Source: Podospora anserina (taxonomy: Eukaryota). From it: a stretch of 64,000 bases of DNA. Positions within the stretch are counted from its first letter, which is position 1. The number at the start of each line of letters is the position of its first letter. This document shows positions 7,110 through 9,447 of the stretch, piece by piece. The notes under the pieces are model-generated. The model made no database searches and was not told the origin of the DNA. It was given only the letters and a program-made list of their open reading frames with translations. Location of the stretch: the NCBI GenBank assembly GCA_017654855.1, contig CM030336.1:2852001-2916000 (forward strand), written 5' to 3'. The translations under genes and the position numbers were made by a program.

Positions 7110-9447
7110 ATGACAACCCTCGAAAGCATTCTCAAGGACCCAGCTGTCGCTGGAGCCTACTGGACCCTTTCGAATCCCGAGGACATGTCCCCCGCCGAGT
7201 CGACTTTCACCATCGGCGGCTACAGCGAAGCTGTCTTTGAACCTGACAACCGCACCCCCGTCGACGAGACCGACTATGCCGATGGCGGAAAATACCGGTG
7301 TTTGTCCCCTTTTTCCACACTACCCCAGGAGACATCCATCACTGACATGTCCCAGCCATTGTCAAGATCGTCATGCGCTACGAAGGCCAAACCAAAGACG
7401 ACAGGCGCTGGGCCATCGGCACGGGGTATCTCATCTCTCCCAACACCTTCGTCACCGCCGGCCACTGCGTCTATGACCGCACTGGTGGAGGCCAAGGTGC
7501 TCAACCGAGCGGTTTGGGCCGTGTCGTCCAGATGAAGTGCTACATTGGTTATTGCGGTCTTGACAGTGTCACTCGTCCCAACAGCACCGTCCAGGCTCGT
7601 CGCGCTCTCGCTACTGTCACCACCGCGCAGTGGATCACCACTGGTGATAGGCGGTATGATGTCTCTTTTGTGAGGCTTGACCGCCCGTTTGAGGGGAGAG
7701 TCAGGGCGCATGATGGCGGGAGCACACTCCGGAACTTTGTTATTCAGGAGACGCCGATGAGGGAGAAGGGCGCGTTGCTGGGCGTGGTGGGGTACCCGGG
7801 GGATAAATACTTGAATAAGGAGAAGGGGGCGCAAATGTATGAGTTGTTTGAGACGGTGGACTATGATTTGGGAAAGGGGGCAGGGAATATGTTGCAGTAT
7901 CGGATTTCGACTTTTAAAGGTGAGTGGTTGACTGGTTGCTTGATCCCATGGTGACTATGGTGATGTGACACTAATGCGAGATTCGGACAGGACAATCGGG
8001 GGCTCCCGTGATTCGGAAATGGGATGCTGCTCCAGACAAGGGGCAGTTGGTTGTCATTGGCACGCATTGCTACGGAGGAGAGGCGCGCAACTCGGCCAGT
8101 GTGATTGGCGGGGAGTATGGCAACAACTACAACTTCTTCCTCGCGGCTCTTGAACAGCTCCCTCCTACTGTCAAGGATGTGACAGGTGTGAAGCGGGTAG
8201 TGGGAAATGACGACTCAGGTGAGACTGGCACCGAGACTGGTATGGATGGTCCGGTCGGTGAGGCGGAGGGCTTTCTTGATGTTCTCAAGGACATCGGCCG
8301 GGTGGTTGCTCCTGTTGTGCAAACTGCCCTCCCCTTGGTTTCACCGCTTCTTGGTCCAATGGGTGGACCGGTGAGCGCCATTGGGAGTATCGCCATGGGC
8401 GCACTCAGCAAAGCAGTTCAGGAATCTGATATGGAATCTGGTCTGCCTCCTCCGCCGAGGATCAAGCTTGCTGCTGGTGTGGCCGAACGCGCCGTGGTGG
8501 CCGAGAGTGTCTTGCAGACTGTCCTCAGGATGGAGAGATCTCCTGTCTCTCAGAGAATCGTCGACAAGATGAGATTCAAGTACACCGCTACTGGATTTAC
8601 CTCGAAGCACGCAGCCAAGTTGGGTCCTAGGATGGTGCCCCTGCTCAGCCAGGCTGGCTTGAGAATCGCTGTCACGGAAGGGCTGATCCAAAAGCCAGCT
8701 GAGTTTGGAGCCACAAAGCAGGTGCCAGTCTCGCAGACCGAAGCCGACTTGACTGGAGATACCCACACCGACAGGTTCCTCGAGAACATCGCCAAGACCG
8801 AGGCCAAGGTCTTGAAGTCAGGGGCTCAGTCCGAGGCATTCTTTGACAACTTGGGGCCATTTTTGACGAGAGCACTCAAAGTGGCTTCGCCTGTCTTGCT
8901 GACGTCTGCGAGGGCTGGCTTGCAAAAGATAGATCAGATTCTGGCCAAGAAAGAGAAGCAAGTTGGCGGTGGCACTGAGGCTCTGCTGGAGGACCCAACC
9001 AATGAGAAGGTCATCACTGATGAGAAGGCCGCTGCATTGCTCGCCCACAGGGCTGTCGTTGCGGAGTGTGCCTTGCAGGCTGTTCTGGAGGCGGAGCCAA
9101 AAGAGCTGAGGGAGAGTGTGATCCTGGGAGAAAGCGCGGGTTCAGCAGAGCAGGAGAGCTTCTTTGGCGGTTTGCTCAAGACTGTCCAGCGCATTGCGCC
9201 GGCCGTGTTGAAGGCTGCCCCGGCAGTTCTCAACACAGCTGTTCCGATCCTTCTTGGTGCTATCAGCGGTCCTGCTGGAGCACCCGCCGTTGCTGCGGTC
9301 TCTTTTAGTGTGTCATCTGTTGAGGACACTGCTGACACTCTGAACGGTGAACATGCTGCTGTTGGTGTCAACGGCTGGAGCAAGAAGAAAGCTGGTATCA
9401 ACGGGGGATCCTTCAAGGTAAGCAATGTTTCATTTGCTTTGGTTTGA
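7110..9447 (+). CDS. Trypsin-fold V8-like (glutamyl endopeptidase-type, S1B) serine protease fused to a long C-terminal helical region with three E-x-F[FL] amphipathic repeats; no signal peptide
   Basis: Introns 7300-7355 and 7920-7990 give the catalytic TAGHC, RYDVSFVRL and STFKG/QSGAPV motifs, plus VIGTHCYGG. The 3' end is uncertain because a GTAAGC donor at 9418 may add an exon out to about 9740-9828. Confidence 0.85.

Follow-up and report, generated by a model that had tools for sequence, protein, structure and literature searches.

A Podospora anserina gene joining a V8-type glutamyl endopeptidase to a duplicated helical tail, with a family-wide glutamate signature consistent with self-processing

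In this work we analysed a 64,000-nucleotide stretch of the Podospora anserina genome (GenBank assembly GCA_017654855.1, contig CM030336.1, positions 2,852,001 to 2,916,000 of the forward strand; hereafter the window) and, within it, the locus PODANS_5_12420 (Pa_5_12420), a gene of four exons on the plus strand. Its 734-residue spliced product joins a V8/BIGEP-type glutamyl endopeptidase to a tail predicted to be compact and mostly helical, which carries amphipathic units poor in glutamate and marked, across a large fungal family, by a glutamate directly before them. The type of the protease, the residues of its S1 pocket, the gene structure, the family-wide conservation of the glutamates, the Glu-poor units and the folded, duplicated tail were all computed directly. 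We judge it an even chance that the tail is self-cleaved at these Glu-marked sites; the whole chain, in which the gene would encode a cytosolic zymogen of the V8/BIGEP type that cuts itself and whose tail segments act on membranes, seems to us plausible and a little short of an even chance.

The original prediction, made from the letters of the DNA, had described a complete His/Asp/Ser triad together with the S1 residues of Glu-specific, V8-type enzymes, and both are found where it had placed them. Residues 41-320 are a V8/BIGEP-type glutamyl endopeptidase by sequence as well as by fold comparison. Specifically, Trypsin was the only family matched in the Pfam scan, in exon 2 (E 2.3e-4), and the top PDB sequence match was 1p3c, the glutamyl endopeptidase of Bacillus intermedius; when the PDB was searched with a family profile, the top nine matches were all glutamyl endopeptidases (1p3c 1.1e-13, V8 4.2e-13, Esp 1.9e-11). 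In the AlphaFold (AF2) model of P0005, the Podospora comata homologue, which differs from the P. anserina product at 6 positions, the protease part is well predicted as a chymotrypsin-like double beta-barrel, and the best Foldseek match of this protease model was again 1p3c (E 6.7e-9, TMt 0.79). The residues of the catalytic triad, in motifs aligned with those of 1p3c, and of the S1 pocket map as follows:

7463-7465, plus strand: His100 (TAGHC), triad
7658-7660, plus strand: Asp165 (RYDVS), triad
7996-7998, plus strand: Ser254 (GQSGAP), triad
7910-7912, plus strand: Thr249, chymotrypsin position 190
8065-8067, plus strand: His277, chymotrypsin position 213
8074-8076, plus strand: Gly280, chymotrypsin position 216

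Among the 62 proteins of the family that retain the GxSGxP motif, position 190 is occupied by Thr in 42 and by Ser in 4. In the portion searched of a 2017 review on glutamyl endopeptidases, His213 and Ser/Thr190 are described as mandatory in the S1 site of such enzymes; Gly216 is present in V8, BIGEP and Esp, and their S1 pocket is completed by residue 1's alpha-amino group after removal of the propeptide (PMC5508998). We consider it, as far as sequence can tell, very probable that the protease of the Podospora protein is Glu-specific.

With regard to activation, the same portion of the review states that in the V8/BIGEP/Esp group the natural enzymes mostly depend on other proteases for their activation, and that autoactivation occurs in variants with Glu at position -1 (PMC5508998). 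The corresponding residue of the Podospora protein is:

7227..7229, plus strand: Glu40 codon, -1 of the predicted mature N-terminus (E followed by AVFEPDNR)

The Glu that had been proposed to end the pro-region is kept in 36 of 44 relatives according to a script, and inspection by eye added two more Glu and two Asp. The mature N-terminus is itself predicted from this conserved junction (Glu followed by x-V/I), and the PDB alignments stop short of it: the P0077 alignment ends before it, and P0001 gave only an irrelevant match (E 1.2). In addition, none of 42 family N-termini contains a signal-peptide-like hydrophobic stretch (KD12 at least 2.0), in line with the absence of a signal peptide that had been noted in the single sequence. 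To judge from these N-termini, the enzyme is a signal-less, probably self-activating representative of a group whose known members are otherwise bacterial and secreted.

The remainder of the protein comprises a linker and the tail, whose parts are the following:

8149..8268, plus strand: linker, residues 305-344, acidic and Gly-rich, ending at Glu344; low confidence
8269..8424, plus strand: peptide unit 1, Gly345-Glu396, with a 51-residue Glu-free amphipathic stretch, carrying three prolines, between Glu344 and Glu396
8479..8529, plus strand: conserved helix 1, VAERAVVAESVLQTVLR, with a predicted local distance difference test score (pLDDT) > 90 and with Arg418, Ala419 and Glu423 nearly invariant
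8539..8679, plus strand: degenerate peptide unit 2, residues 435-481, homologous to unit 4 (hhalign), with a 47-residue Glu-free run
8836..8979, plus strand: peptide unit 3, Ala534-Glu581, after Glu533 and closed by the conserved Glu581
9019..9093, plus strand: conserved helix 2, …AHRAVVAECALQAVLEA, a duplicate of helix 1 (hhalign)
9157..9324, plus strand: peptide unit 4, Ser641-Glu696, after Glu640, with a 55-residue Glu-free stretch

Three related tail segments, each directly after a Glu, had been recognised in the original prediction; all three are present, and there is besides a fourth, degenerate copy at residues 434-481, which had been missed. The Glu codons at 8266-8268 (Glu344), 8833-8835 (Glu533) and 9154-9156 (Glu640) immediately precede GFLD, AFFD and SFFG, respectively. 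The motif E[GSA]F[FL] thus occurs three times in the protein, compared with a mean of 0.034 in shuffled tails, and 0 of 20000 shuffles reach three. The E-x-F-F start of unit 2 has been lost in Sordariales, and EEGF or EESIF is kept there in the distant members P0022-P0024; distant members of the family retain four intact unit starts. The full-length model has pLDDT < 50 over residues 321-373, and both the length and the sequence of the linker vary among relatives.

The starts of the units have hydrophobic moments of 0.53-0.65, which exceed those of shuffled sequences. Specifically, unit 1 (moment 0.65, a value reached by 0 of 2000 shuffles) has a net charge of -1; unit 3 (moment 0.53) has a net charge of +3 and a 39-residue Glu-free run; unit 4 (moment 0.59, again with 0 of 2000 shuffles as high) also carries a net charge of +3, and its first 35 residues are predicted as a single long helix (302-336 of the tail model, high pLDDT). 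Before Glu696 the three longest Glu-free runs, of 55, 51 and 47 residues, correspond to units 4, 1 and 2, and a third-longest run of this length is matched by only 48 of 20000 shuffles.

The same arrangement was then followed across the family, where an iterated local unit profile run on 164 proteins retrieved 389 copies at i-E <= 0.01, one to four per protein; the residue counts at unit starts refer to a 387-row alignment of repeat copies from these 164 proteins. The candidate P1 position, immediately before G/S-F-F-D, holds Glu in 338 of the 349 copies aligned there, and the remainder have Ser in 7 cases, Ala in 2, Asp in 1 and Gln in 1; this bears out across homologues the conservation of a Glu ahead of the F[FL] motif. 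The residue before P1 is Glu in 193 of 276 copies. At P1' stand Gly (269 copies) and Ser (71 copies), the F-F-D positions are occupied by Phe in 251, Phe in 259 and Asp in 264 of the 387 copies, and conserved prolines stand at columns 17, 24 and 32 of the unit profile. A Glu-Gly bond is cut by a related enzyme, according to the part consulted of a further source (PMC9456352). In the alignment of 150 sequences, Glu is found at Glu344 in 121/141, at Glu423 in 144/149, at Glu533 in 128/148, at Glu581 in 140/148 and at Glu640 in 138/147; these five are the tail glutamates preserved best, and the last is invariant in the 20 sequences of a smaller alignment.

Within the units Glu is scarce. Glu makes up 1.3% of the 37 residues after each site and 9.1% of the residues between units, compared with 4.1% and 5.2% for Asp; the depletion of Glu has a Fisher p of 6e-85, a value overstated by the kinship of the sequences. 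The choice of Glu over Asp at the junctions, together with the loss of Glu but not of Asp inside the units, fits selection by a Glu-specific protease and not helix capping alone.

The tail was also modelled alone, with the alignment of 150 sequences, and gave a compact, mostly helical structure of mean pLDDT 80.4 and predicted template modelling score (pTM) 0.82; unit 3 and unit 4 pack well within it (pLDDT often > 90), and unit 1 is less certain. When the two halves of the tail were aligned by hhalign (probability 99.2%, E 5.4e-20) a tandem duplication emerged: on this sequence alignment, the tail is read as having arisen by duplication of a module made of an amphipathic peptide, an R-A-x-x-A-E helix and a second amphipathic peptide. 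Pfam has no family for the tail, and Foldseek returned no analogue of the model (PDB best E 0.17, BFVD best E 0.10), so that the proposal that the tail is not a known enzymatic fold has held; the Protein Atlas features gave a best score of 0.88 for unrelated bacterial clusters, below the useful range. The idea of a chain of free peptides fared differently, the model being a single compact domain. In conclusion, the tail as modelled would be a latent folded domain of about 340 residues whose seams are marked by Glu, rather than free peptides strung in a row.

The best-conserved part of the tail is formed by its two R-A-V-V-A-E-x-A-L-Q-x-V-L helices, in which Arg, Ala and Glu are nearly invariant in the 150 sequences; no reading considered here explains them. 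In helix 2, Arg605, Ala606, Ala609, Ala612, Leu613, Gln614 and Val616 are invariant in 20 sequences. The helices could be a latch holding the amphipathic units.

A word-index search with the tail retrieved 20 relatives, in Sordariales and three metagenome contigs, and an exhaustive profile search 434 cluster representatives (50% identity) at E <= 0.001, of which 184 at E <= 1e-30. Named members belong to Sordariales, Xylariales, Glomerellales, Hypocreales, Botryosphaeriales, Eurotiales, a lichen fungus, Geoglossomycetes and two Agaricales; the family thus ranges over Sordario-, Dothideo-, Eurotio-, Lecanoro- and Geoglossomycetes and the Agaricales. In a Pfam scan of ten long members, nine had a trypsin domain and one was without any Pfam match; one Fusarium model carries extra pieces of non-ribosomal peptide synthetase, and the other trypsin-bearing members showed no further family. 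The database names of the members are serine protease, glutamyl endopeptidase, hypothetical protein or, wrongly, ATP synthase F1.

Some individual entries deserve mention. In the Fusarium decemcellulare models P0090/P0184, of 1889 and 1998 residues, AMP-binding and condensation domains are attached to the protease-tail protein; both are probably merged models of adjoining genes, not a genuine fusion. The 'ATP synthase F1' label (P0068, P0137 and relatives), attached to many Colletotrichum homologues, an Apiospora and a Mycena homologue, is without sequence support and looks like a propagated misannotation. In Hohenbuehelia grisea two near-identical copies of 738 residues (P0107/P0218) lie on the same contig, their locus tags differing by eight; this points to a recent local duplication in a basidiomycete.

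Chymotrypsin-fold glutamyl endopeptidases have been described from bacteria and viruses, and here a large unstudied fungal family is added to them. The words 'fungi' and 'eukaryot' do not occur in the searched text of the 2017 review (PMC5508998), nor does 'trypsin' in that of a 2025 review of fungal regulated cell death (PMC12881547) or of a survey of fungal NLR effectors. No paper on the protease-tail family was found in main texts, including by the gene name Pa_5_12420; supplementary tables could still name the gene.

From these data we infer the Glu specificity of this enzyme, its self-cleavage, a possible effect on membranes and a possible role, for instance in cell death, defence or organelle remodelling, according to a mechanism that may be outlined as follows. 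The protease would cleave off its own 40-residue propeptide after Glu40, and the loss of the propeptide would free the N-terminal amino group that in enzymes of this type completes the S1 pocket. It would next cut its own tail after Glu344, Glu533 and Glu640 (ancestrally at four sites), and probably also after closing glutamates such as Glu581. These cuts would unlatch or release amphipathic segments, 40-56 residues long, Glu-free and Pro-kinked, whose new N-termini would consist of a small residue, Phe and Phe/Leu, and the segments would then bind membranes and disturb them. In its most far-reaching form, this would be a one-gene protease-gated executioner of Ascomycota and Basidiomycota, in which autoactivation after a conserved Glu is followed by the cutting of a latent helical storage domain of new fold, freeing several pore-forming Gly/Ser-Phe-Phe peptides in the cell's own cytoplasm; we put this version forward tentatively and consider it rather unlikely as a whole. 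If true, it would provide the first cellular eukaryotic V8-type glutamyl endopeptidase and a new class of regulated cell-death or membrane-remodelling effectors, with a logic like that of viral polyproteins and capsid lytic peptides.

What matters irrespective of this form is the self-cleavage signature, which extends across the family with Glu at the junctions and depletion of Glu within the units; the predictions are residue-exact. Should the tail products act on membranes, they would represent a compact new kind of protease-triggered effector beside gasdermins and HeLo/HELL domains; should they prove inactive on membranes, the family would still be of value for its new protein fold and for a Glu-specific protease that autoactivates in the cytosol.

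The closest known systems share different parts of this architecture. With the bacterial V8/BIGEP/Esp enzymes (PDB 1p3c, 1qy6, 4jcn) the Podospora protein has in common the fold, the triad, Thr190, His213 and Gly216, and the functional N-terminus that propeptide removal creates in those enzymes is predicted here as well. It differs from them in being eukaryotic and in lacking the signal peptide of a secreted pre-pro-enzyme, in an N-terminal segment about 13 residues longer and in a 400-residue C-terminal extension without known fold; moreover, the Glu at -1, conserved in the fungal family, is in the bacterial enzymes, as far as the searched text of the review goes, an exception where autoactivation is allowed. 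Intracellular self-processing after Glu is known, according to the same text, from viral 3C-like serine proteases (arterivirus nsp4, sobemovirus), which have a chymotrypsin fold with His213 and Thr190 and cut their own polyprotein (PMC5508998). Those proteases reside in viral replicase polyproteins, whereas the Podospora gene is cellular, is nearest to the bacterial V8/BIGEP enzymes and has a repeated tail.

As for the tail, the part consulted of PMC3724706 reports that the birnavirus capsid precursor pVP2 releases its C-terminal peptide, which permeabilises membranes. Like this pep46 (2imu) and the nodavirus gamma peptide, which are proteolytically freed, C-terminal, amphipathic and Pro-hinged peptides of about 46 residues, the tail units are by their sequence amphipathic and proline-containing; the succession of amphipathic helix, proline hinge and helix that characterises pep46 is found in them (moments 0.53-0.65, Pro columns 17, 24, 32). 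The viral peptide differs in its capsid context and in the protease that frees it, and the sequence likeness is below significance and not family-wide. For the likeness to peptides such as aurein, caerin and pardaxin suggested in the original prediction, the one indirect check, a search of PDB sequences with the distant member P0022, gave no match. In the fungal gasdermin/protease pairs HET-Q1/HET-Q2, a latent membrane-damaging protein is activated by a serine protease cut, according to the text searched of the 2025 review (PMC12881547). Those systems consist of two genes, S8 or CHAT proteases and a gasdermin fold, in contrast with one gene, a fused S1 protease and a helical tail in Podospora; neither Pfam nor the Foldseek search of the PDB gave a gasdermin match for the tail. 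In Candida albicans, the Ece1 polyprotein is cut into several peptides, one of which, candidalysin, is an amphipathic membrane-damaging helix; Ece1 is a secreted protein, processed at Lys-Arg by a Golgi protease encoded separately, whereas the Podospora protein has no signal peptide, has Glu instead of Lys-Arg before its repeats and carries its protease fused.

Several points weigh against self-processing followed by membrane action. The counts that make up the signature stem from sequences related to one another and do not represent independent events. At helix N-termini acidic residues are structurally useful by themselves, and a scarcity of Glu is partly expected of hydrophobic cationic helices. 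The sites may be buried or structural in a tail as compact as the one modelled (pTM 0.82), and free 30-mers are not implied. The sole link to a peptide that is membrane-active by experiment is the weak likeness to pep46 (E 0.058, 0.22). A cytosolic protease that activates itself must be held in check, and no such restraint was identified. As regards the cell-death or antagonism role advanced in the original prediction, the surroundings of the gene lend it no support: there is no immune or cell-death gene nearby, and no NLR, HET or HeLo domain was found, among the 20 long open reading frames (ORFs) of the window that were scanned. The family is also conserved widely and is not patchy in its occurrence, which sets it apart from most fungal allorecognition genes.

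In the main rival explanation the tail would stay uncut and serve as a stable accessory domain, and the protease would be an intracellular, Glu-specific processing enzyme whose real substrates are other proteins. Such a tail could regulate the enzyme or recruit its substrates, anchor it peripherally to a membrane, or inhibit it intramolecularly, with the E-E-G-F-F-D elements as helix caps or pseudo-substrates. The confident compact model (pLDDT 80.4, pTM 0.82), the fact that the two R-A-x-x-A-E helices and not the peptides are conserved most, the wide presence of the family in Dikarya with usually one or two copies named per species, and the ordinary gene neighbourhood all argue for an uncut accessory or inhibitory domain, and we regard it as possible, if on the unlikely side. 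It leaves unexplained, however, the 338 Glu against 1 Asp at P1, the loss of Glu with retention of Asp in the following 37 residues, and the same Glu rule at the pro-junction; furthermore, every site is preceded by a Gly/Ser/Ala-rich loop, typical of accessible cleavage sites. Self-processing could alternatively occur as proposed, with the protein or its products reaching the outside through lysis or unconventional secretion and acting there as antimicrobial peptides on competitors. Both unit 3 and unit 4 are indeed cationic (+3) and amphipathic, and the family is common among saprotrophic and plant-associated filamentous fungi; on the other hand, none of the 42 N-termini has a signal-peptide-like stretch, unit 1 is negatively charged (-1) and no export or immunity gene lies nearby, and we consider this use of the products improbable.

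Two further explanations address the unit starts or unit 1 only. The FFAT core consists of seven residues with acidic first and last positions, lies with an acidic tract in a disordered region and binds as an extended strand. If the E-E-G-F-F-D sequences were FFAT-like motifs tethering the protease to VAP proteins of the endoplasmic reticulum, the acidic flank followed by F-F-D in most of the 387 copies would be accounted for, but the position before F-F is Gly (269) or Ser (71) and not acidic, Lys is commonest three positions after the Asp, the motif opens a predicted helix within a folded domain, and the 30 conserved residues downstream would be left unexplained; we therefore think such tethering very improbable. 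Less probable still is homology of unit 1 to the membrane-perforating C-terminal peptide of birnavirus pVP2 through gene exchange between virus and fungus. An ungapped comparison of Podospora unit 1 with 2imu gave 14/36 identical residues (E 0.22), and with 9gg2_A 16/43 (E 0.058), with equal proline spacing. The E value is never significant, though, and worsens to 0.67 (2imu) and 0.41 (9gg2_A) with a 20-sequence profile; with a 150-sequence profile the peptide is not among the best 60 of 62 matches. The distant member P0022 has no match among PDB sequences, the BFVD fold search was empty (best E 0.10), and the two viral matches are related to each other and count once. Homology to pep46 was therefore rejected as unsupported, the likeness being local to unit 1 and lost with family profiles; it is at most a functional analogy.

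The ORFs of the window with a Pfam match around the protease-tail gene are:

5300-6346, plus strand: Cation_efflux ORF
16827-18230, minus strand: Peptidase_M28 ORF with PA domain
21827-25230, minus strand: carboxylic-acid-reductase-like ORF (AMP-binding, PP-binding, NAD_binding_4)
26319-27239, minus strand: HODM_asu-like ORF
30335-31945, plus strand: cytochrome P450 ORF
38682-39719, plus strand: cytochrome P450 ORF
41319-42737, minus strand: Na/H exchanger ORF

These neighbours may belong to a small metabolic cluster unrelated to the protease-tail gene. No Pfam family was matched at E <= 0.001 by the ORFs at 46719-48632 (plus strand, 637 residues), 48908-51209 (minus strand, 377+369 residues) and 61906-63213 (minus strand, 435 residues).

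Finally, the gene structure was derived from translation, homologues and contigs from four public runs, which are RNA only by guess. Since spliced joints are seen in these contigs, the gene appears to be transcribed. The joints 7299>7356, 7919>7991 and 9417>9759 all have GT..AG ends, and the last is present in three studies (runs X1, X2, X5). The resulting features are:

7110..7299, plus strand: exon 1, from Met1 to the first base of codon 64, with the predicted propeptide (1-40) and the start of the mature protease; from translation, the 7299>7356 joint and the P0005 match
7300..7355, plus strand: intron 1, 56 nt, GT..AG; joint in run X1
7356..7919, plus strand: exon 2, bulk of the chymotrypsin-fold protease, with His100, Asp165 and Thr249; from Pfam Trypsin and the 1p3c match
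7920..7990, plus strand: intron 2, 71 nt, splitting the Gly252 codon just 5' of the catalytic Ser; joints in X1 and X2
7991..9417, plus strand: exon 3, protease end (Ser254, His277, Gly280), linker and entire tail domain; from translation
9418..9758, plus strand: intron 3, 341 nt, with two acceptors; 9417>9759 in X1, X2 and X5
9759..9782, plus strand: exon 4, 24 nt, final seven residues VPVTSLA and stop of the 734-residue isoform; from joints and the ends of P0005/P0007
9486..9740, plus strand: alternative last exon, stop at 9738-9740, 811-residue isoform; joint 9417>9486 in one contig, of run X2 only

The end of the gene, previously set at 9447, had to be moved: the stop there is reached only with intron 3 retained, and the coding sequence ends at 9782, or at 9740 in the alternative isoform. 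Unspliced intron 3 is also covered by contigs. The segment 9486-9740 was considered as the main last exon and rejected, as the homologue ends and the contig joints point to 9759-9782. By translation, the 811-residue isoform carries an 84-residue acidic, Cys-containing C-terminal extension, and models of 811 residues are also annotated in three Podospora species. The short, proline-containing C-terminal end coded by the 24-nt exon recurs in Sordariales relatives, as VPVASLA, VPVTTLA, APKV, VPNV and APQV.

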